A stretch of DNA of 64,000 nt from Nanobdellota archaeon. GTDB lineage: Archaea > Nanobdellota > Nanobdellia > Woesearchaeales > JACJVW01. Of the stretch, positions 3,444-55,252 are shown one piece after another. The stretch covers positions 42,716 through 106,715 of the forward strand of contig JBNJGT010000001.1 of NCBI GenBank assembly GCA_051819765.1. Reading direction: 5' to 3'. The notes beneath the pieces are model-generated. The model ran no database searches. It saw only the letters and a program-made list of their open reading frames with translations, and was not told where the DNA came from. A program made the translations under genes and the position numbers. Every line of letters begins with the position of its first letter. Position 1 is the first letter of the stretch.

Positions 3444-4931
3444 GTGGTAAATGTGAGTGATGAAGATCCTGAAAATCTTAAGGAAACAAAAAAGAAATCT
3501 GCTAAGCCTAAGCGCGTCAAGGTAAACCGTAAGAAGACAAAGCGGCGCAAGACTGAGGTACAAAAGCCAAAAGACAATACCTTGCTCTATGTCCTTGCTG
3601 CTGTCGTGGTGGTTGCACTTGTTGTGTGGGCAGTTACCCTGACCAGTCCTGGAGGGGATCAAACGGATGATACGGATGATACGGATAGTTCTGGAATCGT
3701 TGCAACAGTCAATGGTGAGGAGATCACCATGGAAGAGATCAATCGGCAGTATGCCTTGCTCCCACCACAGATGAAGCAATCAATCACCAAGGAGACCCTT
3801 TTGAACCGAACCATCGATGAGTTGGCTTTGATACAGGAAGCAGAACAAAAGGGCATTACAGTCTCCAATACAGAAGTCCAGGAGTACATTAACCAGCTGA
3901 TGGCTCAGAGTGGTATCACTGAGGAAGCTTTGGACCAACAACTTAAGCAAACCAATATGACTCGTGATGACCTTGAGGAGATTTATAAGAAACAGCTGAT
4001 GATCACAAAACTGTTCAATCAGACCGATTTAGGAATCAGTGTAACAGATGAGGAAGTGGAAGAGTATTACAATGAGAACACCAATACAAGCCTCATCACC
4101 GTAGCACCACAGGTCCGGGCGCGTCATATCCTTGTGCAAAACGAGAGCACGGCAGAAGAATTGCTTGTCCGGCTTGAAGAGGGTGAAAGCTTTGCTGAGC
4201 TTGCACAGAACTATTCCCAGGATCCTGGTTCAGCCGAGAATGGTGGAGACCTCGGTTATTTCCCAGAGGGTGCTATGGTACCTGCCTTCAATGATGCAGT
4301 GTTCAATATGACGGTCAATGATAGTCCGCGGATTGTTCAGAGTTCATTCGGATATCATATCGTGGATGTCACAGGGACCAAGGAGGGACAGGTAAAATCC
4401 CTTGAAGAAGTAGAACCGGAAATCCGACAGGTGCTTGAACAACAGAAACAGCAAGTTGCACTGGCTGATTATATAGAATCCGTGCGGGAAGCGGCAACTG
4501 TAACTGTCAATAAGGAGGTTCTTACTGGTGGTGCAACACCTACCAACGATGAGATTGAGACCTTCTCCAAGACTGGTTCAGAGGTCTGCACTGAGGATGG
4601 AAAACCCGTGGTCCGGGTATATACATCTTCAACCTGTCCACATTGTACATGGGTCAACCCTGCTGTGGATGAGGTTCTGCGGGAATACTCTGGAGAGATT
4701 GTCGCACGACATTGGGAAGTTGACACAAAGGATGACCTTCTGACTCCGGAAGAGGAGGGGGCAATCCCTGCTCAGGACATGCAAGTGTACCAGGCAAACA
4801 ATCCGCAGGGGTATGTGCCGTACTTTGATTTCGGTTGCGTCTATACCCGTGTCGGGACCGGTTATGAACGGACCGATGACCTGGAACAGGAAAAGGCAGA
4901 ATTCCGGACAATCATTGAAGAGTTAATTTAA
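3444..4931 (+). CDS. Membrane-anchored SurA/PrsA-like parvulin peptidyl-prolyl isomerase fused to a C-terminal thioredoxin-like CxxC module
   Basis: GTG start. Polybasic N-tail (KKKSAKPKRVKVNRKKTKRRK), one TM helix, an acidic DDTDDTD linker and a SurA-N-like region. The parvulin core reads ARHILV...SQDPGSAENGGDLGYFPEGAMVPAFNDAVF...FGYHIV. The C-terminus carries VYTSSTCPHCTW. Confidence 0.7.
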   Translation: MVNVSDEDPENLKETKKKSAKPKRVKVNRKKTKRRKTEVQKPKDNTLLYVLAAVVVVALVVWAVTLTSPGGDQTDDTDDTDSSGIVATVNGEEITMEEINRQYALLPPQMKQSITKETLLNRTIDELALIQEAEQKGITVSNTEVQEYINQLMAQSGITEEALDQQLKQTNMTRDDLEEIYKKQLMITKLFNQTDLGISVTDEEVEEYYNENTNTSLITVAPQVRARHILVQNESTAEELLVRLEEGESFAELAQNYSQDPGSAENGGDLGYFPEGAMVPAFNDAVFNMTVNDSPRIVQSSFGYHIVDVTGTKEGQVKSLEEVEPEIRQVLEQQKQQVALADYIESVREAATVTVNKEVLTGGATPTNDEIETFSKTGSEVCTEDGKPVVRVYTSSTCPHCTWVNPAVDEVLREYSGEIVARHWEVDTKDDLLTPEEEGAIPAQDMQVYQANNPQGYVPYFDFGCVYTRVGTGYERTDDLEQEKAEFRTIIEELI

Positions 4932-5230
4932 TTTCATTCTAATTTTTCTTTCTTAAGATCGTAGGAGTCGATTGGCGCGTAGGTCATAGAGATGAGTGAT
5001 GCCACAAACATCAGTGTGAATACGATCATGAATGCGAACCCCCATGAAGGATAGCTTGCAAATACGTTGAATGATATAATAAGCCCGATAATACTTGTTA
5101 TCATGAAGGAACCGTTTAGTGGGGCAATTCCCATCTGCATCACCTCTTTTTTTGTTATATGTGGCCCATGTTTAAAAACTTTTTGAGTGAGAACTTTTAT
5201 AAATGAGGACCTTTTCCTCATCATAGTCGC

Positions 5231-5353
5231 GGGGGTGCCGGAGTGGCCAAACGGGATGGACTCAAGGGTATTGAGTGAAGAGCTCCCTGGAGCTATGACT
5301 GAGCAATCCATTGGCTTAGTGCCTACGAGGGTTCAAATCCCTTCCCCCGCATT
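5231..5353 (+). tRNA. tRNA-Leu(CAA) with a canonical-position intron of about 38 nt
   Basis: Acceptor GCGGGGG/CCCCCGC with discriminator A. D-arm CCG-GAGTGGCCAAA-CGG. Anticodon stem ATGGA/TCCAT with loop CTCAAG(G) interrupted by an insert after position 37. Long variable arm TGGCTTAGTGCC. T-arm GAGGG-TTCAAAT-CCCTT. CCA is not encoded. Confidence 0.8.
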
Positions 5354-16785: not shown

Positions 16786-17498
16786 TCTTTGGGTACGTAT
16801 CCTGAGTTAGATAGGGATCGGATTGCAGATGAGATATTGTTTGATCTTGACGATCAATTCAGGCTTGGCGTATCACTGGAATTTATATCAATTACGCGAT
16901 GCAAATTGGGATTCTCTCGGTGATGAATATGAAGCACTGTATTCCAAAAATTTCACCTTAGTGGACGCTTGTGGTGATCCTATGTACTGGAAGCAAAGCA
17001 TTACCCAGGGTTTTAATCCGTCTCATGGCCCCATCTTTCTTCAGGAACCTTAGATAAAACGATAGTCTTGGTTGAAGACGGGTATGAGCATAATGCAACG
17101 TTTTTTGTTTCTGTGTCCATTGGATATAAGAGCATTTCTCACTCTCGAAAAATGTAAGGAACGCTATGGAAGTCTTATTATTGGCTGCTACGGATCAATG
17201 CGAGGTCCGTATATGTGATAGCATACAGAATGAGTCTTTTCGGATGCATCTATGATGTTATCAAAAAGAAGCCTGGACGATTCGCAGCAGATGATTGTGA
17301 ATCCATCCGTGATGAGCGTATTCACAAGCATTATATTGGTTAATCTTGCAAAAATTACCTCACGTGATTTCTATAACAGCATTTCCGGATCTTTCCCGGT
17401 GGCTTCCCAGTCGAAAGTTGGGCATCTCTCCTGGGCTACTATTGATGCGGTCCATTGATGGAAACTCTTTTATACCAGTAGACCTGTTGAATGCAAAT

Positions 17499-18701
17499 AT
17501 GAAAGGGCAGATTGCTGTTTTTTTGATTCTTGGTCTGATAATTATCGCCTCTTTCATACTCGTTTATGCCTTAAATAAAACAAGCATGTTAGAGGAAAAC
17601 GTGCATGCCATCCGGACCACCCCTGAGATGAATGTTATGCAGATACGTGCAAATATCTCCAGCTGTCTCCAGCAGCAATTCGATACTGTCCTTGAAACCG
17701 CTCTGCATCAAGGTGGTGTCTATTATACAGATGTGGATTCAAAGGAGTATGCTGTGCAGTCACAAGGGGATCATGTGGTCCCATTCTTCTATCAGTATGG
17801 GAGGCGGGATATCCCTACCACACAGCAGATCATCAATAATCTCTCTGCTGCTCTTGTGATTGAGAGCAGGCACTGTTCTAATGTCTCTGATGTTGCTGTA
17901 TTTCCTTCAGTCGGTGAGCGTGTGAGTGCACGAATCAATTTCCCGGTTCAGGTCTCAACAGAAAATAAGATTGTCACTCTCGAGGATTTTCATGTGCAGT
18001 CGCATCTTAACGTATCCAACTTCATCAATATCAGCCACCAAGTGGACCAATTCCAAAAAAGAGGATTTTGCGTCAGTTGTCTCAATGAGCTCCCAGAGGT
18101 GAGTTACAGGGAATGGGTCTATGAGGACCGGGTGGATCGGCTTTATAGCGTCAATGATACGTTCTATTTTGCGCATCGTATCAATCGCTCCCTTGGTGTT
18201 GCCCAGAGTGCGGTGTTGTTGGAAGATGTCCCTGATCAGTATGCAACCGCCAATTATCCTTTTGTGTATAATCTGACATTAAGCGGTCGGGGGGTTGAGA
18301 TGCGGGACAATACAGACTTGTTTGAAGTCGAAGAAGGTAAGATCAATTTTACTCCCGGTCTCGAGGATGTGGGGAGACACCTTATCGCCATCACTGCGGA
18401 GAACTCTCAAGGTTCCAAGACTGTATTTTTCAATCTTACAGTCGATACTCTGGTATGCGTGCCAACTATCCACTATATCGGAGGACATAGTGTTGGTGTG
18501 GGTGAGCCATTCATCTATAATGTCACGGCAACATGTGATGAACCTGTCTTCTTTTTTGATGATACTGAGTTATTCAATATCTCAGATGATGGAATGATCA
18601 ATTTCACACCAGAGGTCAAAGGGGAGTATGTGTTTAACATATCTGTCTTAAGTAATAGCGGTGGTACTGATAGCCAGGATATGCAGTTGAGGGTAGAATG
18701 A
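17499..18701 (+). CDS. Type-II membrane-anchored extracellular protein with cadherin-like/Ig-like repeats and many N-glycosylation sequons
   Basis: Start MKGQIAVFLILGLIIIASFILVYAL (signal anchor). Two C-terminal repeats: DLFEVEEGKINFTPGLEDVGRHLIAITAENSQG and ELFNISDDGMINFTPEVKGEYVFNISVLSNSGG. Stop overlaps the next gene. Confidence 0.5.
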   Translation: MKGQIAVFLILGLIIIASFILVYALNKTSMLEENVHAIRTTPEMNVMQIRANISSCLQQQFDTVLETALHQGGVYYTDVDSKEYAVQSQGDHVVPFFYQYGRRDIPTTQQIINNLSAALVIESRHCSNVSDVAVFPSVGERVSARINFPVQVSTENKIVTLEDFHVQSHLNVSNFINISHQVDQFQKRGFCVSCLNELPEVSYREWVYEDRVDRLYSVNDTFYFAHRINRSLGVAQSAVLLEDVPDQYATANYPFVYNLTLSGRGVEMRDNTDLFEVEEGKINFTPGLEDVGRHLIAITAENSQGSKTVFFNLTVDTLVCVPTIHYIGGHSVGVGEPFIYNVTATCDEPVFFFDDTELFNISDDGMINFTPEVKGEYVFNISVLSNSGGTDSQDMQLRVE

Positions 18702-20992
18702 GAGGCTTCATATTATTGTTAGGCATTTTAAGTGTGATCTTCAGTATCGGGATTGCTGAGGAGCAAGGGTTTGATACAGATGACCCTGCTACATATGCGC
18801 AAAATCCTGAAGAGGTCATTGAAAATTTTGATACGATTGTTGATTCGAAGCCTGATATGCTTATCCAAAAGATGGATGAGAATCCTGGACTGCGCAGCAG
18901 GATTCTTGAGGATAAAGAGACCCGTGATACTCTTTTCTTGAAGGACAATTCGCTTCTCAATAGGGACGGGTATAGGACCGCTGCAAAAGACATGTTCAAT
19001 GATAAGTTTACCGGGTGCACCTTTACTGAAATTGATGGAGATATCGAATCCTTCTCTGAGGATCCTTTGGAGATAACGACTGCTAAAGGCTCATTGGCTT
19101 TGGGAGACCTTCAGGGTGGGGACTATGATGTCAGTATCGAGGAAGATGGTAGGATTAACCTCAATGGCCGTTCCTTTGAGGGTCAGATAACCGGTAATGG
19201 TGATACTCTTGCGGTCGATGGGAGCTATATGGTGGATGGGGAGTCATATAGCATTGCCGGGGACATCCGTGATGTTGGGGAGGGTCGCCTAGAAGGGACC
19301 TTCACGGAATTCAATGGGATTTCGGGTGAAGATCTGGATCTTACTTATCAGGATGGGATTGTTACACTTGGTGGTGGGAGAGTGGATTCTATCGATGAAC
19401 CTGTACGCATCGCAGGGCGCTTTACGTGCGCCAAGGAAGATATCGGGAGTTTTATGTCTGACGGGGCACAGATCACGGTCCTGGACAATGGAGATTTCGA
19501 TCGGCGGTATACTCTGCCAAAGGATACCACTGTCAATCTTCTCATGGATACTCCGGTGGACGAGGACTATCCTGAAGATGCCATCTCTTTATATGCTGAC
19601 GGCTATGCGGCAGATTACGAGAGTGGCGGGGCAACGGGTGACCTTTATGATATGGATCTTCCTCCACGGGGATATCTTGATGTAGGTGATTCCGGGGTGG
19701 AACAGTTGCAGCGGCAGATAAATGCTGAGTTGCGAGATCAACCGGGGTTTGAACCGATCAGCGTTGATGGGATATATGGCCCTGAGACCAAAAATGCTGT
19801 AAGAGAACTACAAAGGAAATATGGGTTGACTCAAGACGGATTATTCGGTTCCAATACTAAGGATGCTCTTATGCAAACCACGAATATGTTTGAAGTGCAA
19901 CGCTATGACCCTAATCTTGGTTCTCGTGGATTTCTATCACCTGGTAATAGAGGTGTTGAGGATGTTCAGCGGATTCTTAATGAGGAATTAATGATGCATG
20001 AGGATTTCGAGCCACTGCAGGTGGATGGAGTCTATGGTCCGAAGACTGAGGCCGCTGTCAAGATGTTGCAGAGGCAGTATGGTCTCACTGTGGATGGCAA
20101 ATTCGGAAGCCAAACTACGCAGGTACTTTCTGAGGCTTATCAGTTGACCGGTGAGGGGGGGTTTCGGGTGGTAGAGACTGAGTCTACCATGGAGTATTCT
20201 GAGGGAGCGTATCAGAATGGGGATCCTCTGCAAACCACTACCTACTTTAAGGGGGATTTTAATTACGGACGCTTTATCGCAGGTAATGATGGTGGGTATC
20301 AACCCATAATATATACGCAAGATGGCAAGGTCATGAATGAACCTGGGTACAGTTATGTATTAGATGATTTTGAGTATTTTGATGGCAATACTTACCAGGA
20401 ACTGGGTGATGTTGTTTCCCGCACTGACGGTTCAGAGGTCAATGGTCCCCCTCATGTCCAGAGTGGGGTTGATACTGAAGGCACTTCTGGCCTTACAACC
20501 AGAACAGTAGGATTGAATCCCCAGGAGATGGATCCTGAGATGAAGCAGTATGTGATGGAGAAGGCGCAGGGTGCAGGATTGGATCCAAAACGATTATTGC
20601 AGCAGATGAAACTTGAATCTCAGTTCGATCCATATGCTTTAAGTCCTGATAATTGCGTGGGTTATGGGCAGATCTCTGAAATTGCAGTTGATGATATAAA
20701 TGCTAACTATGGAACGTCATATGGGTATGATGATAGATGGCACCCCAAAAAAAATGTGGATATGGCTGTGGCTTACCTAGGCCTTCTGGATAGACGTGTA
20801 CGAAACAAGTACCCTAATGGAAAAACAACTCCTGATGGGAGGCATTATACACCTTTGGAAATTCGTGATCTGTATTATGTTGCAGGATCAGGGAACACTG
20901 ATAAATTTTTGAATGGCGAAAAATCAGGTGTCGGTGATGTCTCTGAAAGCTATTCTGAGAATGTTGAAAGGCAGCCGGTGTCTCTTCCCTAA
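18698..20992 (+). CDS. Secreted peptidoglycan-binding protein with a C-terminal lytic transglycosylase (SLT/lysozyme-like) domain
   Basis: Signal peptide MRGFILLLGILSVIFSIGIA. Two PG_binding_1-type repeats: ...VDGIYGPETKNAVRELQRKYGLTQDGLFGSNTKDAL and ...VDGVYGPKTEAAVKMLQRQYGLTVDGKFGSQTTQVL. SLT core MKLESQFDPYALSPDNCVGYGQISE...NVDMAVAYLGLL. Confidence 0.75.
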   Translation: MRGFILLLGILSVIFSIGIAEEQGFDTDDPATYAQNPEEVIENFDTIVDSKPDMLIQKMDENPGLRSRILEDKETRDTLFLKDNSLLNRDGYRTAAKDMFNDKFTGCTFTEIDGDIESFSEDPLEITTAKGSLALGDLQGGDYDVSIEEDGRINLNGRSFEGQITGNGDTLAVDGSYMVDGESYSIAGDIRDVGEGRLEGTFTEFNGISGEDLDLTYQDGIVTLGGGRVDSIDEPVRIAGRFTCAKEDIGSFMSDGAQITVLDNGDFDRRYTLPKDTTVNLLMDTPVDEDYPEDAISLYADGYAADYESGGATGDLYDMDLPPRGYLDVGDSGVEQLQRQINAELRDQPGFEPISVDGIYGPETKNAVRELQRKYGLTQDGLFGSNTKDALMQTTNMFEVQRYDPNLGSRGFLSPGNRGVEDVQRILNEELMMHEDFEPLQVDGVYGPKTEAAVKMLQRQYGLTVDGKFGSQTTQVLSEAYQLTGEGGFRVVETESTMEYSEGAYQNGDPLQTTTYFKGDFNYGRFIAGNDGGYQPIIYTQDGKVMNEPGYSYVLDDFEYFDGNTYQELGDVVSRTDGSEVNGPPHVQSGVDTEGTSGLTTRTVGLNPQEMDPEMKQYVMEKAQGAGLDPKRLLQQMKLESQFDPYALSPDNCVGYGQISEIAVDDINANYGTSYGYDDRWHPKKNVDMAVAYLGLLDRRVRNKYPNGKTTPDGRHYTPLEIRDLYYVAGSGNTDKFLNGEKSGVGDVSESYSENVERQPVSLP

Positions 20993-21773: not shown

Positions 21774-22822
21774 ATCGTGTTGGAATCGAAGACCCGAAGA
21801 ATCGGTCAGGGACCTATCTATATGAGGATGATTCTGCGAGGCTTTCCGAATCACGGGATGACAATATCGAGATCATGGATATCCGTGAGGCCCTCAAGAA
21901 GTATGACTGGCTCGCCAATTACATGTGGAAAGCCCTTGACCCTGAAAAGGATGAATACACAAAGATGGCGCGTAACCACTACCGTGGTGGGTATTTCATC
22001 TGGGTTAAGAAGGGGGCCCATATCTCCCTTCCTATCCAATCCTGTATGTTCATAAAGGAAGATCATTTCACCCAGGTAGTCCATAACATCGTGATCGTGG
22101 ATGAGGGTGCATCAGTTGATATCATGACAGGATGCCTAACTCATCCGAATGTGCATACGGCTGAGCATGTGGGTATGTCTGAATTCTATGTGAAGAAGAA
22201 CGGGCGCCTGAATTTCACGATGATCCATGACTGGAATGACAAGTCATTTGTCAGGCCACGAAGCGCGACCATCGTCGAGGAGGGAGGCTCATTCATCAAT
22301 AATTATGTGCTTCTTGAGCCAGTGAAGGATATTCAGGCTGCGCCAATCACGTATCTGAAAGGTGCTAACAGCAGGGCAACTCTCACGAGCCTGTTGCAGG
22401 GGGTTGGAACATCCAGTATCGATATGGGTGGGACTGTTGTGCTCCAGGGAAAGGGTTCACAGGGTGATATCATCTCCCGGGCGATCGCAAAAGATTCTTC
22501 AACTATCTATGCCCGGGGCATCATCCAGGGTGAACATGAGGAATCACGGGCGCATCTGGAATGCAATGGTCTGTTGCTTTCGCCGCACGCGAAGATCCAT
22601 GCCATCCCTGAGCTTGTTGCTACGACAGAGGGTGCGGATCTGTCCCATGAAGCAGCAGTCGGGAAGATCGCTGAGGAGGAGATAATCTATCTCATGTCCC
22701 GGGGAATGACAAAGGAAGAGGCTGAGGCCATGATCATCCGTGGCTTTCTGGATGTCAATATGCTGTCCCTGCCTGATGCCTTCAGGGAACGAGTCAAGGA
22801 TCTCATCAATCAGCTTAACTGA
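21761..22822 (+). CDS. Fe-S cluster assembly protein of the SufB/SufD family
   Basis: 353 aa immediately overlapping sufC. C-terminal beta-helix region (..GANSRATLTSLLQG..IISRAIAKDSSTIYARGIIQGEHEESRAHLECNGLLLS..). Confidence 0.7.
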   Translation: MEELNRVGIEDPKNRSGTYLYEDDSARLSESRDDNIEIMDIREALKKYDWLANYMWKALDPEKDEYTKMARNHYRGGYFIWVKKGAHISLPIQSCMFIKEDHFTQVVHNIVIVDEGASVDIMTGCLTHPNVHTAEHVGMSEFYVKKNGRLNFTMIHDWNDKSFVRPRSATIVEEGGSFINNYVLLEPVKDIQAAPITYLKGANSRATLTSLLQGVGTSSIDMGGTVVLQGKGSQGDIISRAIAKDSSTIYARGIIQGEHEESRAHLECNGLLLSPHAKIHAIPELVATTEGADLSHEAAVGKIAEEEIIYLMSRGMTKEEAEAMIIRGFLDVNMLSLPDAFRERVKDLINQLN

Positions 22823-25800
22823 ATTCTCTCCGGTTGTAATAGTTTGCAGCAATCACGATACCGATGAGAATCAGGATAAGGGTCGCAAGGATTATGCCAA
22901 TGATTGTAAGCGGTACCTTGTTCCTGTTCAGGTACCCTCTCCATTCGCTCATCTCCTGGGGCTGCTCTATCTGCTGCTCTTTACCGCTGATAAGATACCG
23001 ACAGGTGTCGATGGTCTTTTGCAAGAGTTCCTTTGACTGCTCGGTCTTGCCCTGTTCAATCAGGTCTCGTGCACGGGCTATCTGCTCGTTGAGTTCCAGG
23101 CATTCAGGGTTTGAGGTAAGCAGGTCACGGACAAACTTCACTTCATTCTCCAGACTCTCCCCTTCAAGAGGCGTGATTGATACAAATGCATAGTCCATGA
23201 GTTCAGGGTTCAGGGAATGGGCACTGATATTGATATTGACTGCCTCTGCGTTTTGCCAGGATGCTTCTACCTGGGTCTCCAGGGTTTCCTGGGGGCTGAG
23301 TGTTGCAATGACCTTGTCCTGAAAATTGAATGTGACGTCTTCATTGCTCTGGGCATCAAGGGTGATCTGGTTGAGGGTGATATTCCCTTGGTTCTTCAGT
23401 GTAAGGGGAATTATTACTGAATCGTTATCTGTCTGTATAAGGGGTTGCGGGGTGATGAGCTGGAGGAACTCTGGCTGTGTGACGTTTTCTGTCTCAGGGA
23501 ACGGGACAATGACCCGTCTTATGTCTCCACCTCCTCCTCCTGAGCTTTCGGGAGGTGGCTGGTCATAGGTGTCGAGGACTGTTATGGTTATGTTGTTTGA
23601 TTGGATGCTTGCGTTTTTTGGATCTTGTGCCTCTACCCTGAAACGCGCGATGCCGTACCAGTCTGTTGCCGGAGAAAGGCTGAGCTGGTTTTGCTGGTTG
23701 ATTGATATGCCTAGATTGTCGCTGTTTTGTATGTCTATTATGGAGAAATTGAGGGTGTCTTTGTCCTTGTCTGAGAAATAGTGGTCAAGGTCAATCCAGG
23801 GAGAGATGTCGTATTCCTCTTTCATTATGAAATCCGGGATTCGCATATTGAGGAGAGGTTCGTTGACTGTCGCATTGCTTATGGTGAGTGCGTACTGGAT
23901 GTAACGGTTTTCCCAATGGTACGTCATATTCTGGGTGCGGTTTTCGTCATGGAACAGGCTTTGGTTTGATAGTGGGTCGGACCATGATGACCAGGCATTC
24001 GCGTTGTATGATGTGCGTGCCTGGAGTGTTGCAGCGCTGACCTTGTGGAGCCTTAGTTCGTTCACTTGTATCTGACCTGTGAAATCCAGTTTCATTCGAT
24101 CCATAGGGGTTGGAGGGATGGTAAGGGTCTGGTTGCCGTTGCAGTCTGATGAAAGGAGATGATTGGAAGTGCCATTGAAGGTGTATGTGATGTTGATGGT
24201 TGTAGGTTGTCTTGTTGAGAGTGAAATGTTCCGGATGAAGGTTGGGGTATTGAATGCGATCGAGAGGGTTGCGGGTGAGTCAGCCTCCCAGTAGGTAAGG
24301 TAATTGTCATCATATGTTCTTGAGATGTTGTGGAATGAACTTGTTGTATGTGATGCGGTGCGTTCTCCTATGATCTCAGAGGTGTGGTTCCCTCTGACAC
24401 GGTACTTGATGTTTCGAAAATCCGGCTTTAAAAGATGGGTTGTGTCGTCCAGGGTGTCCTTTGGCTCTGAGATGAATCTTCCTTGCCCCCTGAATGAGTC
24501 GGTATAGGAGGTATTGTAGAAGGTACCATCAATGCCGAGGGGGACCTCTCCGAAAGAGGGTGGGCGGTTTACATCAATGACGGTGATATTCCATAGTACG
24601 TGGTTTGCTGTGACATTGTCAGATACGGTCAGATTGAGGGTGTGTGTGCCTGAGCTGGAATGATTAAAGTATATGGTGAGGTTCTTTGTTGTATGGGAAT
24701 GGTTATCATATATCCAGGTGGTGAGGATGGTGTCATTCTCATTGTCTGAGCTGTTGTGCATGAAGGTTATTGTCGTGTCCTCGGCGGTTGTAAGATTTAT
24801 CCGGGTCTTGTTTGTCCAATTCCCATGATAGACCTCATGGATGATTGGGGGGGTGTTGTTTTCTACCTCTATTGTTATCAGGTTTGAGCTTGTTGTCGCA
24901 ATGGAGTCGTTTGCGACGAATGCGACGGACAGGTTTCCCACGAAGTCGGTTGCAGGAGCGGCTGTGACACGTGATCCATTGAACCAGAGGGTCATGTCTG
25001 TGGTTGGGCTGTGGGTGAAGTTCATTGACTGGTTGCATGCGTCAATCTGGTAGAAATAATCTGTGAGGTCAAGTATCTCTTTGACCTGGTTCTTTTTTAT
25101 TGTGATATTGGGTATGGGCCTGTCAAGTATTGGTGGTATATTATTATTCTGGACTGTGAGGTTCCATGTGAGGCCTGTGGAGAGATTGCCGTCGGAAACG
25201 TTGACGCTTATGTTATACTGGCCTGCTGCGCAGAAATCGGGAGTGAATGACCAGTTCTGCGTTGTTGCTATAGGTTGGTTGTTGATTGTCCAATTGTAGA
25301 AAAGCAGGTCACTATCTGGGTCATGGATCGTAATGTTGAAGTCCTGTGTGGTGTTCTCCTGAATCGTGTGGTTCAGGGGAGGGATGAAGCTTGTTATCTC
25401 AGGCGGCTTACTTACGTTTATTATATGGTACAATGCTTGCTTGTAGGTGGTGTTGATGCCATCGGTCACGCTAAAGTTGAGGGTCAGGTTTCCCGGCTGT
25501 TTGGGTGTGAAGTTGAATGTTCCTATGGTGGTGGCGCCGATCGGCTCTGTTTGTATGGATGAGGAAATGTTGAAAAGCAAAGGTGATACATTGAGTGCGA
25601 GAAGATCTGCGTCCTCGTCATAGGCTTTGATTGTTATCTCATAGGTATGGTCTTCTCGTAATGAATTGCCGCCGGTCTTGTTCTCCAGCAGTGTAAAATA
25701 CGGGATATCGTTCGTGTCGGTGATGTTTATCACAAGCGTTGATGAGTTGATGCCTCCGTAGGGGTCTGAGACGGTGATGTTGAATGGGTGTACACCTACC

Positions 25801-27797
25801 TCTGATTGGTTGGCTGTGAGGTTTATCATGAGGGTGTTGTTTTGTATCCATGAGGATAGGTTGTGAAAGGAAAGGTTGGTTGAGTAGTTGAGTGTGTCAT
25901 CATCTGGGTCGGTTGCCTGTATTGTGAAGTTGCAGGGGTAATCCTCGCGGCAGGTGACTGATTTGTTGCTTATTTGTGGGTTGTGGTTGCTTGTGATATT
26001 GAATATTGCGATTGTTGAATCATTGAATTCACCATCAGAGACGGTGAGGTTAACCTGTACAAGGCTGACATTGTCAGGGGTGAACTGGACGAGCCCCGTG
26101 GACTGGATGTCGAAGAGGGAGGTGTTGTCCCAGTACATGTGGGTGTCATCGATGTCACGGTCTTCTACATATGAGGAAAGGTCACGGCTGAAGCTCGTGT
26201 TCACCCGTGGGTTGAATGTGGGCAAGGGTTGCCATTGGGGGCGGTTATTGATGTCTATTACTTCAAGGTGGAAGGCCTGGTTGTCTCGTGCTCCTTTTGA
26301 ATCTTCGACAGTCACCTGTACTGTATGATTGCCTGTATGGTTGTCCATCAGTTGCACTTCCAAGCGGGCACTGGCGTTTTCTTTATCATCTATCGGTATG
26401 ACATTGATCCATGAGATGTTTGTTGAGAAGGTGAGGTTGTCTTCAGGGTCAAGGTCTGTTGCGTTGACTATGAGCTGGAACAGGTTGCCTTCAGTATCTG
26501 TCTGGTTGTCTATTGGTGAGAGTACAGGGATATTATTCTTTTTGACTTCTATAGACACATTTGTGCAGGTAGTATTGATTGAATCGCTTGCGCAAATGTT
26601 TACAGTGTGGTTCTTTACTTGTGAGGGAGTCGTATTGATGATGCCGTCGGTCGTATTGAATACACTGCTGTTTGAGGTGAATGTATGAGAGTCATGGGGG
26701 TCATTGTCTGTGAGGTAGTCATTGAGATTTAATGTGAAATAGGCGCCTTGCGCTGTTGTCTGGTTGGGAATGGGAAGGAAAACCGGCGGGTTGTTGACGT
26801 TATTTACAGTTATGGTTATGTTGTTTGAATCAGTGGTGGTGTAACTGTCATTTGCCCTGAACCGTATGGTGACATTACCGAACCAGTAATCCTCAGGATT
26901 GATTGAGACTGTGTGGTTTCCCTCTATCGCTATGGTGACATTCACTTCAGGTATTGCGTTGATTACTGAGTAGGTAAGATTATCCTTGTTTGCCCCTGAG
27001 CAGGTAGTATCCGGGTCATTAAAGTAATCCTCCAATACCAAAAAGTCTTCGAGCTGTTCTCCTTCATTAAGAGTGATGTTTGCGATTGGACCATTGAACT
27101 CGGGCTGGCGGTTGCTATTGTTCACTGTTATATCCCAGGTGTAGGTGTCTGACTCGTTTTGGTCGGTTATGTCCACTTCTACTGTGTGGGTTCCTGCGGT
27201 GCAGTGGCCAAAGCCTATGCTGTATAGTCCAGAGGTTGAATTTGTCTTGTTTACGAGAATGTTATTGTGGTACCAGGTAGTCTCAAGGCTGTCCCCCCAG
27301 GGGATGTCAGGGTCTGATAGGGAATAGTTGTATCTGAATTCCTGGGTTGTACCCTCTGTGATGCTGATTGGGGAAAGGGGAGTTACGCCTTTCAGGGCCG
27401 GCGGGTCGTTTACGTTTTGGATCCTAAAGTAGAGCCGTACGGTCTCATACTCTGATGAGGGTCCTGAATCTTCGGCAATAATGTAAATTGTGTAATTTTG
27501 TGGTCCACTTTCGGTTCCGACATCCTCGTTTGTAGGTGTGAAATTCATGATGGCGCTGGTATCATTGTAGCTTTCCAGTTGGAAGGATGGGAATAGTTCG
27601 CTTGCCAGTGCCCCGGCTTCAGTTGTTTTGAAAGTGATAGGGTAATCCTCATCAGGGTCGATCGCCTTGATAAAATAGGGCGGCGTGGGTTGATCTTCAG
27701 TCAGGATGAACCAGTCGTCATCTGCTACGTTCGTGAATTGAGGGGTTGCCCCATAGGCCAATGTTACCAGTAGCAGTATCAGTAGCAGTCGTTTCAT
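22815..27797 (-). CDS. Giant (1660 aa) surface adhesin-like glycoprotein: signal peptide, many cadherin/Ig-like repeats, C-terminal TM anchor
   Basis: N-terminal MKRLLLILLLVTLAYG. Dozens of NxS/T sequons. Repeated '...FTP..V......NLTVSDG' units. C-terminal IIGIILATLILILIGIVIAANYY followed by a short tail. Confidence 0.7.
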   Translation of the reverse strand: MKRLLLILLLVTLAYGATPQFTNVADDDWFILTEDQPTPPYFIKAIDPDEDYPITFKTTEAGALASELFPSFQLESYNDTSAIMNFTPTNEDVGTESGPQNYTIYIIAEDSGPSSEYETVRLYFRIQNVNDPPALKGVTPLSPISITEGTTQEFRYNYSLSDPDIPWGDSLETTWYHNNILVNKTNSTSGLYSIGFGHCTAGTHTVEVDITDQNESDTYTWDITVNNSNRQPEFNGPIANITLNEGEQLEDFLVLEDYFNDPDTTCSGANKDNLTYSVINAIPEVNVTIAIEGNHTVSINPEDYWFGNVTIRFRANDSYTTTDSNNITITVNNVNNPPVFLPIPNQTTAQGAYFTLNLNDYLTDNDPHDSHTFTSNSSVFNTTDGIINTTPSQVKNHTVNICASDSINTTCTNVSIEVKKNNIPVLSPIDNQTDTEGNLFQLIVNATDLDPEDNLTFSTNISWINVIPIDDKENASARLEVQLMDNHTGNHTVQVTVEDSKGARDNQAFHLEVIDINNRPQWQPLPTFNPRVNTSFSRDLSSYVEDRDIDDTHMYWDNTSLFDIQSTGLVQFTPDNVSLVQVNLTVSDGEFNDSTIAIFNITSNHNPQISNKSVTCREDYPCNFTIQATDPDDDTLNYSTNLSFHNLSSWIQNNTLMINLTANQSEVGVHPFNITVSDPYGGINSSTLVINITDTNDIPYFTLLENKTGGNSLREDHTYEITIKAYDEDADLLALNVSPLLFNISSSIQTEPIGATTIGTFNFTPKQPGNLTLNFSVTDGINTTYKQALYHIINVSKPPEITSFIPPLNHTIQENTTQDFNITIHDPDSDLLFYNWTINNQPIATTQNWSFTPDFCAAGQYNISVNVSDGNLSTGLTWNLTVQNNNIPPILDRPIPNITIKKNQVKEILDLTDYFYQIDACNQSMNFTHSPTTDMTLWFNGSRVTAAPATDFVGNLSVAFVANDSIATTSSNLITIEVENNTPPIIHEVYHGNWTNKTRINLTTAEDTTITFMHNSSDNENDTILTTWIYDNHSHTTKNLTIYFNHSSSGTHTLNLTVSDNVTANHVLWNITVIDVNRPPSFGEVPLGIDGTFYNTSYTDSFRGQGRFISEPKDTLDDTTHLLKPDFRNIKYRVRGNHTSEIIGERTASHTTSSFHNISRTYDDNYLTYWEADSPATLSIAFNTPTFIRNISLSTRQPTTINITYTFNGTSNHLLSSDCNGNQTLTIPPTPMDRMKLDFTGQIQVNELRLHKVSAATLQARTSYNANAWSSWSDPLSNQSLFHDENRTQNMTYHWENRYIQYALTISNATVNEPLLNMRIPDFIMKEEYDISPWIDLDHYFSDKDKDTLNFSIIDIQNSDNLGISINQQNQLSLSPATDWYGIARFRVEAQDPKNASIQSNNITITVLDTYDQPPPESSGGGGGDIRRVIVPFPETENVTQPEFLQLITPQPLIQTDNDSVIIPLTLKNQGNITLNQITLDAQSNEDVTFNFQDKVIATLSPQETLETQVEASWQNAEAVNINISAHSLNPELMDYAFVSITPLEGESLENEVKFVRDLLTSNPECLELNEQIARARDLIEQGKTEQSKELLQKTIDTCRYLISGKEQQIEQPQEMSEWRGYLNRNKVPLTIIGIILATLILILIGIVIAANYYNRREFS

Positions 27798-30322
27798 TTT
27801 AGCTGTTCGAACAGGTCACCTATCTTTTTGAAGTATCTCTTTTTCTTCTCAATGTCAGCCTTCTCATATAATGCTGAGAGTTCTTTGTAAAGTTTTCGCG
27901 CCTCATCGAGATGATCGGTTTTCAGGAGTACCTCGATGTGTTCGGCGAGTGTTTCCATCTCATCCTTATCTTTTGCAGTGAGAGCAAGGGTGAGCTCGTG
28001 GTGGAGGTGATCGATGTGTGATTGGTCAATCTCTTTGCCAGCATATTCTATCTCAGACAACTGCTCAAGAAGCCGTTTGATGTGTGTCTGTTTTTCTGGA
28101 GGGAGATCCTTGATCCTTTCTTCCATCTCTTCGTATGTCAGTTGTTCATCTGTGTCAAGCGCTTCCTGGATATGGTCCTTAAAGGTCTTTGAGACATGAT
28201 CAATACTGGGCTGTTTCTTCTCAGGCACGGGCACTTCCTTTATGATTGTCTTTTTGTGGGATATGATCACTGTTCCGATAAGACCTAGAATCATGATTCC
28301 GATCACTGTTGCGATGAGTATCGCGTATTCCTCAATATTGGCTTTGATGACGACTGCGGGTTCTTCCGTGATGCTGCATTTGGGGCAGGGCCCTCCACAG
28401 TCAACTCCTTCTTCTCCCTGGTTTTGCCTGCCATCATCGCATGTTTCACACGGGTCGCATGGCCCTCCGCAATCAACTCCTTCTTCTTCCTGATTTTGCA
28501 TGCCATCATCGCATGTGGGGCATGGTTCGCATGGTCCTCCGCAATCGATACCTTCTTCACCCTGGTTCTTCACCCGGTCATAGCAGGTATAGCATGGCTT
28601 GCATGGCCCTCCGCAATCAATCTCTGTCTCTGCCTGGTCAAGTCGGCCATTCTGGCAGGCAGGGATGTAGGTGCAGCGACGGAATTCAAGCGGTTTTCCT
28701 TCATCGGTTCCACATTCTGCCAGGTCGTAGCAGATTCTGCTGGAGACATTTGACCTGTTACAGTGGCTCCAGTCGCCGCAGAACCACACCGGCTCACAAT
28801 CACCGGACCCGGTTTGGGGCATTGCTCCTCCACCGCCGCCTGCGCCTTCACCAGAGTCTTCACCATCTGAGCCTTCAGTCTGGCCTTGTTCACCTTCAGC
28901 GACTTCAAGGGTTATCCAGTTGCTGGTATCTCTTGCTCCTGCCTGGTCTTGCACATGGAAGCGCACCTCTTCTGTGCCGATCCAGTCACGGGGTTGGGAG
29001 AAGATTGCTTGTGTGTTCTCTTCATCAATAGTGACATCAATGGCATGGAAGGGTGAGGCGTACTCCACTGAGTATGTGAGTGAATCATCCAGGTCTGGGT
29101 CTTCGGTGTAGTCATCGAGTATGAAACCGGCTCGTATCCTGTTCCTTTGCCAGGTCTGATTCGGGAGGGGTCTTGTGAATAGGGGAGGCCTGTTCCTGTC
29201 GAGTACTAGCACCTGCCATCGGTGGATTGCACTATAATGGCCATCACTGACGTTTGCGGTTATGGTATGATTCCCAGCTGAATAATGATTAGTCTCCCAT
29301 ACATATGTGCTTGAGCGGTCTGTATACTCTGAGTCTGTATATGTGGAGAGAAGGCTCGCGCCATCGTACCAGGTGATTGTAAGGTCTTTATCATCCGTGG
29401 GGTCGGCGTTCTCCAGCTCGAAATCACGGTACCGGATGAAAAAGGTCTGGTTGTCGGTCTCATTCACTGTGATATTTGTCTGAGGGGATGCGATCGTGAT
29501 CTCTGGGGGATGGTTCCTGATGGATACATTCACCTCGCCGGGCTTGATCGTCAGGTGGTTCTGGCATTCGCTTCCATCAGTACCATACCATTGCACTGTA
29601 TAAGGGTTGTTGCGGGTGAATGTGTCATCAGTTGTGAGTGGAAGGGTGAAGTTCACAAAGCCGGTGTCCGGTTCTATGGAAAGCTCTGAGTCAAGGGGTT
29701 CAATTGAATAGACGTTGAAGGTGTAATTTGTGGGGCAGTCTTGGATCTGTCTGGTTACGGTCTTGTTAGGGTAGCGTTCGATTATGATTGTGCGGTTAGA
29801 GTCCTGCACCTGTATTATACTCTGGAAGCGTGAGATGTTTTCAGAGAAATGGAAGGTGAGGTTGGCGTGCAGGAGTTTTTTATCAACGGTTACTGGTGTC
29901 TGTTTTGGCACGTTGGTGTCTAGCACAGTCTGGTTTAGACGAATCTCTCGGAGGTTCGCGCTGGTGTCCCAGGAAGGAGTGATGGTGTTGATGCGTGGAG
30001 TCCGTGCGCAGGTGTTTTCTATGGTGAGGTTGACATCTCTTTCATCCATGGTGGTGTTTATCCGCAGGCAGCTTTCCCTGCAATCGGGATCGATAATGTT
30101 CAGGTCGCATTGGTATGATTCTCCCTGGTAGATCATGCCTGGGCAATCGTGCACTATGAGTGGGGGGTGGTTGTAGCAGAGTGAGACTGTGCCAGTGGAG
30201 ACAGCCTTACCAGTAATCAGATGATCCCTGGTGCTTATGATAGTCCAGTTCAGGGTAATGGATGATATCATAAGCGCGATTGCCAGGGCTGCAATCATGT
30301 TGTTTGATATGCGTACTTTCAT
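27794..30322 (-). CDS. Type-I membrane surface protein (842 aa) with Ig-like ectodomain, four tandem Cys-rich 'DCGGPCxPCxTC' repeats, TM helix and cytoplasmic coiled-coil tail
   Basis: Signal/anchor at the N-terminus. Repeats EIDCGGPCKPCYTC / GIDCGGPCEPCPTC / GVDCGGPCDPCETC / GVDCGGPCPKC. TM YAILIATVIGIMILGLIGTVII. K/E-rich C-terminal tail. 4-nt overlap with the giant gene downstream (operon). Confidence 0.7.
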   Translation of the reverse strand: MKVRISNNMIAALAIALMISSITLNWTIISTRDHLITGKAVSTGTVSLCYNHPPLIVHDCPGMIYQGESYQCDLNIIDPDCRESCLRINTTMDERDVNLTIENTCARTPRINTITPSWDTSANLREIRLNQTVLDTNVPKQTPVTVDKKLLHANLTFHFSENISRFQSIIQVQDSNRTIIIERYPNKTVTRQIQDCPTNYTFNVYSIEPLDSELSIEPDTGFVNFTLPLTTDDTFTRNNPYTVQWYGTDGSECQNHLTIKPGEVNVSIRNHPPEITIASPQTNITVNETDNQTFFIRYRDFELENADPTDDKDLTITWYDGASLLSTYTDSEYTDRSSTYVWETNHYSAGNHTITANVSDGHYSAIHRWQVLVLDRNRPPLFTRPLPNQTWQRNRIRAGFILDDYTEDPDLDDSLTYSVEYASPFHAIDVTIDEENTQAIFSQPRDWIGTEEVRFHVQDQAGARDTSNWITLEVAEGEQGQTEGSDGEDSGEGAGGGGGAMPQTGSGDCEPVWFCGDWSHCNRSNVSSRICYDLAECGTDEGKPLEFRRCTYIPACQNGRLDQAETEIDCGGPCKPCYTCYDRVKNQGEEGIDCGGPCEPCPTCDDGMQNQEEEGVDCGGPCDPCETCDDGRQNQGEEGVDCGGPCPKCSITEEPAVVIKANIEEYAILIATVIGIMILGLIGTVIISHKKTIIKEVPVPEKKQPSIDHVSKTFKDHIQEALDTDEQLTYEEMEERIKDLPPEKQTHIKRLLEQLSEIEYAGKEIDQSHIDHLHHELTLALTAKDKDEMETLAEHIEVLLKTDHLDEARKLYKELSALYEKADIEKKKRYFKKIGDLFEQLK
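28380..28650 (-). repeat. Tandem ~75-bp coding repeats (4 units) encoding the Cys-rich DCGGPC motif
   Basis: + strand shows reiterated 'ggccctccgcaatc(a/g)a(c/t)(t/a)cc...catcatcgcatgt' units. Confidence 0.6.
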
Positions 30323-30439
30323 TTCTTGTAGCGCAGTAGTATCTGGCGGATGCCTTCCCTGGCAATCTCAGCTTGGTTGCTGAACAGACCTGAATCTATC
30401 AGTTCTTCCATCTGTTTCTTCATTTCTTTTCCGACACGG

Positions 30440-30598
30440 ATATGGAGGAGGTCTGCCATGTATATAATGTATATCAATATGATATATTTATAATACTTTC
30501 TGTGAGGGATTTATCTGTTATACTATATCGTATATATATCAAAATGATATACTTTATTACTCAGAAGTTTTTTAAATCAAGAACTGTTAATAGGCAGT
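30440..30598. promoter_or_regulatory. AT-rich divergent promoter region with reiterated TATA-like elements (tatatca / gatatat / tatatat)
   Basis: More than 80% AT. Lies between the surface-protein operon start (30322, -) and the DUF116-like gene (30599, +). Confidence 0.4.
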
Positions 30599-31192
30599 AT
30601 GGAAGTATACCTGCTCATGTTGCTTGCTATCAGCTTTTTGTTGATGTTGCTGGTGGGGGTGGGATACATCTTATATCGTTTGGAGAAACCAGTGCTTTCT
30701 CAGTTGTATGTTCCATTATTCTCATTTTTGGGTGGGCCGCTTCGCCGCATCTTTGGGCAGACATTGTACAATAAGATATTTGTTCTCTTTGGGAATCAAT
30801 ACTCACGAAAAAAGTTCAAGGCCACTCCATTCTCTAATCGGGCGGTCTTTTTGCCCCAGTGCCTGCGTCATACCGATTGTCCGGCCCGACTTGGGACTGA
30901 AGGGATCCAATGCGTCAAGTGCGGGCGCTGCGGCATCGGATCTTATGTTAAAAAGGCTGAGAACTATGTGTATGTGTTTGTTGTGCCTGGAAGTTCATTC
31001 ATCAAGCGTATGGTACGAAAATATAATCCCCATGCTATTCTTGGGGTCGGGTGTCTTATGGAGGTGCGGGAAGGATTAGAGTTGATGGCATCACTCAAGA
31101 TACCTGGTCAGGGGGTTGTGCTTGCTGATGATGGGTGTGTGGGGACCCATGTGGCATGGGATGATGTGCTTGATGCAACCTTTCGGTCCTAG
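30599..31192 (+). CDS. Membrane protein with a Cys cluster, DUF116-like
   Basis: N-terminal TM helices then LPQCLRHTDCPARLGTEGIQCVKCGRCGI...VVPGSSFIKRMV...AILGVGCLMEVREG...GVVLADDGCVGTH. Confidence 0.45.
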   Translation: MEVYLLMLLAISFLLMLLVGVGYILYRLEKPVLSQLYVPLFSFLGGPLRRIFGQTLYNKIFVLFGNQYSRKKFKATPFSNRAVFLPQCLRHTDCPARLGTEGIQCVKCGRCGIGSYVKKAENYVYVFVVPGSSFIKRMVRKYNPHAILGVGCLMEVREGLELMASLKIPGQGVVLADDGCVGTHVAWDDVLDATFRS

Positions 31193-54468: not shown

Positions 54469-54744
54469 ATGCTAAAGATGAAAAATATTACTGATACCTT
54501 TGATATGAAGGTTTTTACTGATAGTGGTGAGTACTTCGGTGACATTGAGGAATCAATACTCACCCAGACCAAAGTCTTTGGATGGCGGGTCAAGGCGACC
54601 AAGAATTCCTATCTTTCCAAGGTACTTGGGAATGCGAAGGGAGTTATCGTTCCCCACCAGCTTGTAAAAGCCATCGGCGATATCATGCTCATAAGCAAGG
54701 CTGCGGTTCCGTCGTATAACCCGGAATCGAATGATTACGAATAA
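54469..54744 (+). CDS. PRC-barrel domain protein
   Basis: 91 aa of beta-rich sequence (...VFTDSGEYFGDIEESILTQTKVFGWRVKA...KGVIVPHQLVKAIGDIMLI). Overlaps the queH start by 14 nt. Confidence 0.45.
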   Translation: MLKMKNITDTFDMKVFTDSGEYFGDIEESILTQTKVFGWRVKATKNSYLSKVLGNAKGVIVPHQLVKAIGDIMLISKAAVPSYNPESNDYE

Positions 54745-55252
54745 GCTATTGCATGTGTGTTGTGCTTCCTGTGCGCTCGTTGCGTTGGAGCGTTGGGATG
54801 GCCTTTCTCTTTTCTTCTATAATCCTTCTATACCTCCTGGGGAGTATGATGCGCGTTTTTCTGATGTGAAACTGGTTGCCCTGCGGTATGGGGTGGAGCT
54901 TGTGCCCGCGCCGTATGATCACCAGGCGTGGCTTGATCGCGTTTTTGGGCTGGAGGGTGAGCCTGAGAATGGCAGGCGCTGCCTTTTGTGTTACCGGGAC
55001 CGGCTGGAGAAGACCTATGAGATGGCGGTGAATAAGTTTGATGCCTTTGCGACGACATTGACTCTAAGCCCCCACAAGAACGCAGAAATCATCAACCGCA
55101 TCGGGAAGGAGGTCGGTGGTGACCTGTACCTTGAGAGTAACTTCAAAAAGCAGGCCGGGTATGATCTCAGTGTACGTCTGAGCAAAGAGATGGGCTTGTA
55201 CCGTCAGAGTTTTTGCGGCTGCGAGATGAGCATGCAGTCTCCCAGTGAATAG
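54731..55252 (+). CDS. queH: Epoxyqueuosine reductase QueH (DUF208)
   Basis: LLHVCCASCA near the N-terminus, FFYNPSIPPGEY, a conserved Cys pattern (..GRRCLLCY.., FCGCE) and about 170-aa length. Confidence 0.7.
   Translation: MITNKLLHVCCASCALVALERWDGLSLFFYNPSIPPGEYDARFSDVKLVALRYGVELVPAPYDHQAWLDRVFGLEGEPENGRRCLLCYRDRLEKTYEMAVNKFDAFATTLTLSPHKNAEIINRIGKEVGGDLYLESNFKKQAGYDLSVRLSKEMGLYRQSFCGCEMSMQSPSE

Follow-up and report, generated by a model that had tools for sequence, protein, structure and literature searches.

The window, a 64,000-nucleotide stretch of DNA from a Nanobdellota/Woesearchaeota-type (DPANN) archaeon, carries on its minus strand an operon for two large membrane proteins, which we call B842 and A1660 (842 and 1660 amino acids (aa) long, respectively). 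On balance we favor the reading that these two proteins form a regulated two-subunit glycoprotein surface complex, an adhesion or envelope structure in which one subunit is coupled to the cytoplasm. As judged by its sequence features, the locus is the local copy of a gene module that is conserved across Woesearchaeota/Pacearchaeota-type DPANN archaea. The window contains an archaeal RNase P RNA, and B842 is 100% identical to a protein (P0001) of a Nanobdellota metagenome-assembled genome (MAG).

A three-gene operon and its candidate regulator

The B842 gene occupies positions 27794–30322 and the A1660 gene positions 22815–27797, both on the minus strand, and both open reading frames (ORFs) are uninterrupted. 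At their junction, CTAAAATGAAACG, the TGA stop codon of B842 overlaps the ATG start codon of A1660 in the 4 nt ATGA, and B842 is therefore the upstream gene. A third gene at 30319–30459 (minus strand), identified by its translation, homologues and weak profile matches, encodes a 46-aa ribbon-helix-helix (RHH)-like protein, MADLLHIRVGKEMKKQMEELIDSGLFSNQAEIAREGIRQILLRYKK, and its TGA overlaps the B842 ATG in the same manner. The operon thus consists of three genes, in the 5' to 3' order RHH-like gene, B842 and A1660, with ATGA at both junctions. A reading made earlier from the sequence only had recognized the two intact ORFs with their 4-nt overlap, as we find them, and had called them a two-gene operon; the co-transcribed pair stands, while the gene count does not, since the RHH-like gene was missed, and it is B842 that lies upstream.

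The nearest relative of this locus, L001 in a Woesearchaeota MAG, has orthologues of B842 (70% identity) and A1660 (79% identity) and keeps the 4-nt overlap between them, the four Cys units of B842 (below) and the convergent SufBD and SufC genes that lie beside the pair in the window. The locus in a third assembly (L006) resembles those of the window and L001 and also has an intact pair with four Cys units. Because L001 and L006 carry intact orthologous pairs, the concern that the repeats might be an assembly artefact or the ORFs interrupted is removed.

The RHH-like protein is 100% identical in L001 over 45 aligned residues, compared with a divergence of 21–30% for the B and A proteins, and its gene lies directly upstream of B842-like genes in 10 other loci. 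It matches ParD (TIGR02606) with an E-value of 8.4e-5 (22.5 bits, below the cut-off of 46.2) and the archaeal regulator CdrS with an E-value of 5e-3 (also below the curated cut-off); its best PDB matches are ParD and CopG/Arc/MetJ proteins with E-values of 0.03–0.7 (0.034 for ParD), and there is no match in Pfam. Two copies of the palindrome ATATCA-N3-TGATAT are present nearby, a proximal one at 30471–30485, which is 12–26 nt upstream of the RHH-like ATG in an AT-rich putative promoter, and a distal one at 30536–30550, a candidate operator 77–91 nt upstream of the gene. These are the only two matches to the palindrome in the 64 kb when one mismatch or fewer is allowed, and 0.21 are expected. 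The loci of five distinct relatives (L001/L009, L006, L019, L034 and L052) have the same palindrome just ahead of the RHH gene, and among them are loci whose RHH protein is only ~55% identical. We infer from this that the palindromes are probably the autoregulated operator of the RHH-like protein. It is like the RHH proteins ParD, CopG and CdrS in its size, its beta-strand/helix/helix pattern and the palindrome over its own promoter, and unlike them in that its scores are below the cut-offs, no toxin gene accompanies it and its operon contains surface-protein genes.

Architecture of A1660 and B842

By its ORF, family matches and topology, A1660 is a giant type-I surface glycoprotein. It begins with a signal-like segment (aa 4–22) and has a hydrophobic segment (aa 1625–1655, core ~1630–1652) that ends shortly before, 8 residues from, its C-terminus. 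The protein contains 99 N-x-S/T glycosylation sequons, compared with 32.5 ± 5.3 in shuffled sequences (z 12.6). Two curated families are matched well above their thresholds, Big_9 (PF17963 of Pfam; 101.8 bits against a cut-off of 23.6, in 6 stretches) and the tandem-95 repeat (NF012211 of NCBIfam; 121.9 bits against 90, in 7 stretches). A1660 also matches PKD and Cadherin_5 (37.9 bits, above cut-off), and Cadherin_4 below its cut-off (16.7 bits); the classical cadherin family PF00028 is absent among the Pfam matches at E ≤ 0.1. A hidden Markov model (HMM) derived from the protein itself finds 11 units of ~95 aa, at aa 130–1078 and 1311–1409. All of this bears out the earlier description of a giant protein with a signal-like segment, many sequons, reiterated cadherin/immunoglobulin (Ig)-like units and a C-terminal hydrophobic anchor.

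From its N-terminus A1660 can be divided as follows (all coordinates on the minus strand): an Ig-like array (aa 20–1076; 24570–27740), defined by the family matches and the self-derived HMM and composed of an N-terminal domain plus ten contiguous ~95-aa units; a 240-aa non-Ig insert without a family match (aa 1077–1316; 23850–24569), which is kept in one homologue (P0128) at 36% identity over 99% coverage; a last cadherin-like unit (aa 1317–1410; 23568–23849), where the Cadherin_5 match (aa 1341–1404) and the HMM agree; and an anchor module (22842–23567), delimited by alignment and AlphaFold2 (AF2) modeling, that has a Gly5 hinge, a beta-sandwich (~aa 1446–1541), a two-Cys helical hairpin with the sequence NPECLELNE at aa 1563–1571 (the cysteines are Cys1566 and Cys1599) and a transmembrane (TM) helix at aa 1630–1652. 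The AF2 model of aa 1077–1660 was built from a 5-sequence alignment and has a mean predicted local distance difference test (pLDDT) value of 48.7; in it the anchor's sandwich reaches 70–87 and its helices 59–76, and the insert has low confidence. Foldseek searches with this model returned generic Ig-like beta-sandwiches only. With a poor model and generic matches, we conclude nothing about the fold of the 240-aa insert. A profile search of the PDB with the anchor gave weak TPR-like noise only.

B842 (27794–30322, minus strand, as are all its parts below) is a type-I membrane glycoprotein as judged by its ORF, topology and homologues. It has two hydrophobic segments, one at its N-terminus (aa 5–31) and a second at aa 661–694 (core ~667–688). 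The former contains a signal or anchor (aa 9–31; 30230–30298) that is followed by the conserved motif ITGKAVSTGTVSLC, and the latter is a TM helix by its hydrophobicity (aa 667–688; 28259–28324). The ectodomain has 18 sequons where 5.9 are expected from shuffled sequences (z 5.4); the cytoplasmic proteins encoded in the window have sequon z values of 0.4 or less, save a photolyase-family protein at 2.0. Because the sequon enrichment is confined to the ectodomains, and from the positions of the hydrophobic segments, we assign an extracytoplasmic topology to these regions. These topology signals agree with the earlier picture of a type-I partner, in which a stalk of Cys repeats leads into a TM helix and then a cytoplasmic tail.

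The first residues of B842 (aa 5–50) carry a signature, [RK]-I-[ST]-N-N-x-[IL]-A-A-L followed by I-T-G-K-A-x-x-x-G-x-V-x-L-C, that is common to distant B842-like proteins and is also present in P0004, P0132 and an unrelated 207-aa neighbor protein in the locus L012; it may act as a signal for processing or targeting. The ectodomain proper (aa 51–480; 28883–30172) has two clear cadherin/PKD-like units at aa 270–476 and a more divergent N-terminal part. The scores of B842 against the curated families are below cut-off (Big_9, 17.9 against 23.6 bits; tandem-95, 17.5 against 90 bits); the two Ig units are found by the self-derived HMM (E 1e-24 to 1e-28), and aa 270–476 match A1660 by BLASTP at 29% identity (E 3e-18). 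A Gly run at aa 494–499 follows the ectodomain.

Between this Gly run and the TM helix lie two kinds of Cys-rich module (B842 holds 30 Cys in total). The first is a 6-Cys module, CEPVWFCGDWSHC...C (aa 509–550; 28673–28798), with the pattern CxxxWxCxxWxxC, which is present in one copy in 36 of 38 B842-like partners (below) and is reminiscent of the thrombospondin type-1 repeat. The second consists of four 24-aa, 4-Cys "DCGG" units (aa 556–651; 28370–28657), defined with Tandem Repeats Finder, alignment and AF2. Their consensus in B842 is C-x-D-G-x-x-N-x-x-E-x-G-[IV]-D-C-G-G-P-C-x-x-C, and that across homologues is C-x-D-G-x-x-N-x-x-E-x-x-x-D-C-G-G-x-C-x-x-C; in 37 sequences there is little or no variation in the columns of all four Cys and of D, N, E, D and G. 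Tandem Repeats Finder reports a period of 72 bp with 3.3 copies and 79% matches at 28385–28620, and any two of the B842 units share 12–18 of 24 residues (50–75%) and 61–76% of their bases. The four tandem units that the sequence-only reading had noticed are therefore there, at 24 aa and 72 bp rather than its ~25 aa and ~75 bp, and they are not near-identical as it had them; units so old and diverged make an assembly collapse unlikely.

AF2 models the DCGG repeats with pLDDT values of 80–87. When aa 507–655 were used as a query, 929 protein clusters were found at E ≤ 0.01, many of them short Bacteroidota lipoproteins or type IX secretion system proteins and others from Altiarchaeota and Woesearchaeota; on these matches, the DCGG repeat is not special to B842 or to archaea. 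Neither the DCGG repeat nor the 6-Cys module before it matched a Pfam family at E ≤ 10 (EGF, TSP1, disintegrin, LNR and Kazal types included) or an NCBIfam family at E ≤ 1; a sequence-profile search of the PDB gave nothing meaningful (the best match, E 0.053, is spurious), Foldseek with the AF2 model gave nothing at E ≤ 0.001, and a literature search for the literal string "DCGGPC" found no papers. The NCBIfam "acidic double-disulfide repeat" (NF033662) and EGF-like repeats resemble the DCGG units as short, acidic 4-Cys units that occur in tandem in secreted proteins, and differ in that the B842 module has no match in the Pfam and NCBIfam searches just given; NF033662 touches one DCGG homologue only, and that weakly (P0012, E 0.026). 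With four Cys per unit, two disulfides within each DCGG unit are likely, and the pattern of acidic residues suggests a metal site. The spacing D-G-x-x-N-x-x-E-x-x-x-D-C-G resembles that of the disintegrin N-terminal Ca-binding loop, CGNGxxExGEECDCG.

The cytoplasmic tail domain of B842 (aa 689–842, 154 aa; 27797–28258) contains no Asn and no Cys, and has the motifs LTYEEM...EY and, at its C-terminus, A+xLYxxLxxLYxxxxxxKKKxYxKIxxLF. An exhaustive phmmer search of 1.84 billion representative proteins with the tail found three proteins only, two of them B842-like; the domain diverges quickly, and a PDB profile search gave weak TPR-like noise only. The tail had been described as a cytoplasmic coiled coil; its cytoplasmic location holds up, and for the coiled coil a crude contrast of the heptad a/d positions gives no support, as 26% of shuffled sequences reach the observed value.

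The gene pair in related archaea

A word-indexed search with full-length B842 missed most of the relatives, which were found by queries with individual modules. The last 584 aa of A1660 identified four distant relatives, whose contigs have an upstream partner gene and, downstream, MoxR, DUF58 and BatA/VWA genes. The C-terminal 260 aa of the A1660-like (A-like) proteins can be aligned (alignment A3) through a Gly hinge, a beta-sandwich, a hairpin with an invariant NPECLELNE and a TM helix, with a second invariant Cys 33 residues after the Cys of NPECLELNE. A scan of species-level genomes (one genome per species) for this anchor motif gave 74 loci, most of whose titles name Woesearchaeota, Nanoarchaeota/Nanoarchaeia or Pacearchaeota. 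A genome fragment carries one copy of the A-like gene or, now and then, two, and its full-length products are ~1190 to 2864 aa long, with two mini forms of 355 aa.

We define the B-A module as an A-like protein that has the complete anchor (Gly hinge, beta-sandwich, hairpin with NPECLELNE, TM helix) and, encoded upstream of it, a B842-like (B-like) protein in which the CxxxWxCxxWxxC module and at least two DCGG units are joined to a TM helix and the tail domain. The window has both, the A-like anchor and, upstream, the B-like protein with its Cys modules, TM helix and tail domain. Among the 46 loci with more than 3 kb of upstream DNA, 38 have a same-strand upstream ORF with at least two DCG units. 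All 38 of these partners have a TM helix; the tail is 130–240 aa long in 33 and 6–93 aa in the other five; DCG units number two (9 loci), three (9), four (14) or five (6); and in 8 of the pairs the overlap onto the A-like gene is exactly 4 nt.

The tail domain also occurs without a membrane protein attached. A 241-aa protein in L012 (10675–11400, minus strand), convergent and directly after the A-like gene, has homologues in 54 loci, and these are of two classes, the tails of B-like proteins and separate proteins with no TM helix, Cys or sequon enrichment. The latter (C-like proteins) are taken as cytoplasmic on these features. Such a soluble tail paralogue is encoded, convergently and immediately behind the A-like gene, in ~40 loci; it is 220–340 aa long (550–1300 aa in some) and its gene often overlaps the end of the A-like gene by 4 nt. 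The window has no such gene. An alignment (A5) of 20 B-like tails, that of B842 among them, with 24 C-like proteins resolves two modules, a F..hF...YEFT.EEL...EY domain and at least one C-terminal A+..Y..I...Y..L....KK..Y..I..LY helix pair. Because it aligns with soluble cytoplasmic paralogues, the B842 tail is a conserved domain and more than a charged spacer. DUF4129 (PF13559) accompanies MoxR-DUF58 clusters and was for that reason tried as a relative of the tail; this was rejected, as only 1 of 44 tail or C-like sequences matches it, at 16.4 bits against a cut-off of 24.8.

MoxR, DUF58 and BatA/VWA genes follow on the same strand in 34 of the 48 loci that have at least 7 kb of downstream DNA. 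Phmmer found no match to MoxR, DUF58 or BatA anywhere in the 64-kb window. The suggestion that the B842 tail serves signaling or cytoskeletal coupling thus survives in part: some cytoplasmic coupling is plausible from the soluble paralogues and from the MoxR-DUF58-VWA genes of relatives, and nothing points to the cytoskeleton. Our literature searches (Woesearchaeota or DPANN with MoxR, and DPANN surface proteins) found no paper on this module, which is no proof that none exists.

Several relatives differ from the window in ways that we record here. The A-like gene is split in two of them, by a frameshift in L002 (3957–8146) and by a single in-frame stop codon in L003 (5553–9977); sequencing error, decay or recoding may account for this. 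Upstream of the B-like gene in L012 (1331–2937) and 22–23 other loci there is a gene for a ~390-aa beta-sandwich-repeat protein with a C-terminal TM helix, and a second recurring upstream gene in those loci encodes a ~140-aa N-anchored Ig-fold protein; the window has neither. One subfamily (L021, L039, L045, L054, L057, L060, L062 and L078) has giant B-like proteins of ~1950–2030 aa with 85–89 Cys, and at least L045 and L078 have an extra small ORF with TM and Ig features between B and A.

Role of the pair and its surroundings

In the mechanism that we favor, both large proteins would be exported, bear dense N-glycosylation and be anchored in the membrane through a C-terminal helix. A1660 would be the long arm, with ~12 cadherin/PKD-like beta-sandwich domains, the 240-aa insert and almost nothing in the cytoplasm, and B842 the shorter partner, whose Ig-like domains and Gly hinge would be carried on the 6-Cys module and four DCGG units as a rigid membrane-proximal stalk. 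The two would assemble into one surface complex that contacts a host cell or a substrate. The B842 tail would tie this complex to cytoplasmic partners, which in most relatives could be the soluble tail paralogue and the MoxR AAA+/DUF58/BatA-VWA trio encoded next door, and the RHH-like protein, by binding both ATATCA-N3-TGATAT palindromes that lie over the promoter, would autoregulate the operon. DPANN archaea live attached to other cells. This lifestyle, together with Ig arrays that vary in length, makes adhesion to a host or a substrate the likeliest role of the pair.

Several observations weigh against this interpretation. The physical association of A with B is deduced solely from conserved adjacency and overlap of the genes; no ligand-binding domain was identified in the pair, and the insert was modeled poorly; and the RHH assignment comes from sub-threshold matches. 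The A-like gene has no upstream B-like gene in 8 of the 46 loci. The window and its two closest relatives have neither MoxR-DUF58-VWA genes nor a soluble tail paralogue near the pair, so cytoplasmic coupling may not apply here. Finally, ~28 of the 74 loci (L006, L011, L013, L015, L016 and ~23 more) are titled "uncultured Methanosarcinales archaeon"; given the Woesearchaeota-type operon there, these titles are probably placeholders or errors.

The main rival to adhesion is that the pair is a structural envelope component, an S-layer or canopy analogous to SlaA/SlaB of Sulfolobales, which would supply a lattice and its membrane stalks. In the Sulfolobales slaA and slaB are adjacent genes for large glycosylated envelope proteins, one of which combines beta-sandwiches with a stalk of helices and a TM anchor at the C-terminus. 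Archaeal S-layer glycoproteins typically have Ig-like arrays, membrane-proximal helices and a C-terminal TM anchor. The pair has all of these last features, together with conservation across many species at one or, occasionally, two copies per genome fragment, the extreme sequon density of A1660 and, in 22 loci, the additional upstream beta-sandwich protein with a C-terminal TM helix. Nevertheless, in the Pfam and NCBIfam scans neither protein matches an S-layer family or gives a sequence or family match to SlaA or SlaB; the wide range of A-like lengths, down to the two mini forms, and the variability of the Ig array are more adhesin-like; and a dedicated regulator gene and a cytoplasmic domain are unusual for S-layer genes. 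Unlike SlaA/SlaB, both proteins here are TM-anchored. We regard an S-layer role as possible but rather unlikely.

We give less credence still to A1660 and B842 being independent adhesin paralogues linked by nothing more than a common transcript, with the B842 tail a passive charged spacer and the MoxR/VWA synteny a coincidence. The two proteins do have Ig-domain types in common, the MoxR trio is missing from the window and from 14 of 48 loci, and the tail search yielded its three matches only; such independence is at odds with the B-then-A order in 38 of 46 loci, with the eight exact 4-nt overlaps and with the tail motifs that soluble neighbors in ~40 loci share. A further proposal, from the sequence-only reading, joined the operon with an adjacent peptidoglycan (PG)-hydrolase pair and SufCB into an island for surface or cell-cell interaction. 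The genes do lie near one another, and the pair (17346–20992, plus strand) comprises a 764-aa protein with two PG_binding_1 domains and an SLT lytic-transglycosylase-like domain and a 451-aa membrane protein that is sequon-rich (z 6.4) and has two cadherin-like Ig domains. But the hydrolase is devoid of sequons, and none of the 74 related loci encodes a homologue; PPDK abuts SufC in L001, where the hydrolase pair is missing, so this pair is a local insertion or was lost elsewhere; and SufC and SufBD are convergent housekeeping genes of Fe-S assembly, on the opposite strand, that lie beside the A-B pair only in the two closest relatives. We consider such an island very improbable, and return to the two-subunit surface complex.

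That complex has parallels in known systems. A1660 is like the Big_9/tandem-95 and cadherin-like adhesins in the thresholds it passes, its arrays of ~95-aa units, its signal peptide and its surface location, and unlike them in its anchor module, its obligate-looking upstream partner and its very dense sequons. As an analogy only, integrin alpha/beta likewise has two type-I subunits, one in which a stalk of four Cys-rich repeats precedes the TM helix and a functional cytoplasmic tail, and the other with Ig-like "leg" domains and a minimal tail, and VWA proteins occur in the relatives' system; there is, however, no integrin, EGF or PSI family match here, VWA is on separate proteins, and the heterodimer is putative. 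Known MoxR-DUF58-VWA (Bat-type) clusters include the Bacteroides aerotolerance operon, Borrelia BB0170-0176 and, in Bifidobacterium, the PFNA cluster, to which an FN3 surface protein belongs (PMC5700661, PMC8430577). The B-A pair followed by MoxR, DUF58 and BatA-N/VWA in 34 of 48 relatives resembles these, and the PFNA cluster is alike in the Ig/FN3-type surface protein attached to it; the window differs in that the trio is absent, and B-, A- and C-like proteins are not among the components that the papers found describe for those clusters. MoxR-DUF58-VWA clusters with a surface FN3/Ig protein are the closest system-level parallels.

Other features of the window can be noted briefly. A murein hydrolase of bacterial type in an archaeon suggests a horizontal origin and possibly a bacterial target; apparent homologues of the accompanying 451-aa protein at other loci were rejected as orthologues, since they share Ig domains only. 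A DUF116 gene (30599–31192, plus strand) lies between the operon promoter and an upstream gene for a 460-aa secreted protein, and is absent from that place in L001. At 3444–4931 (plus strand) is a gene for a 495-aa, sequon-enriched (z 3.4) protein with a SurA-like N-domain, a PPIC rotamase domain and weak thioredoxin-like matches, a candidate extracytoplasmic folding or disulfide factor that would be relevant to Cys-rich surface proteins. A 123-nt tRNA match at 5229–5351 (plus strand; Rfam, 43.8 bits), unreported by ARAGORN, is probably an intron-containing archaeal tRNA. QueH (epoxyqueuosine reductase) and Queuosine_synth (QueA-type), bacterial-type queuosine genes in an archaeon, are at 54731–56181.

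If the pair is an ordinary adhesin or S-layer, the value of these findings is limited to better annotation. A bolder and quite doubtful possibility is that the B and A proteins, together with the soluble paralogue of the tail and MoxR-DUF58-VWA, form one conserved apparatus of Woesearchaeota/Pacearchaeota, an integrin-like host-contact receptor, and that DCGG is a new, widespread, possibly Ca-binding disulfide-rich fold. If so, an Ig-domain arm and a Cys-repeat stalk subunit would cross the membrane, and an AAA+/VWA machine would engage the cytoplasmic domain of the stalk subunit and couple attachment outside the cell to events inside it, and the DCGG fold would be common to Bacteroidota surface proteins too. 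The DCGG repeat marks hundreds of Bacteroidota surface lipoproteins, and one structure would annotate many proteins; with the CxxxWxCxxWxxC module, the NPECLELNE hairpin anchor and the tail domain it makes four modules that are outside the curated libraries. To our knowledge, the large Woesearchaeota and Pacearchaeota groups have few or no cultivated members. The locus described here is a concrete and widely recurring candidate for the molecules with which these groups make contact with other cells, with a defined gene order, and it adds a candidate regulator and operator and, in relatives, a link to MoxR/VWA genes.

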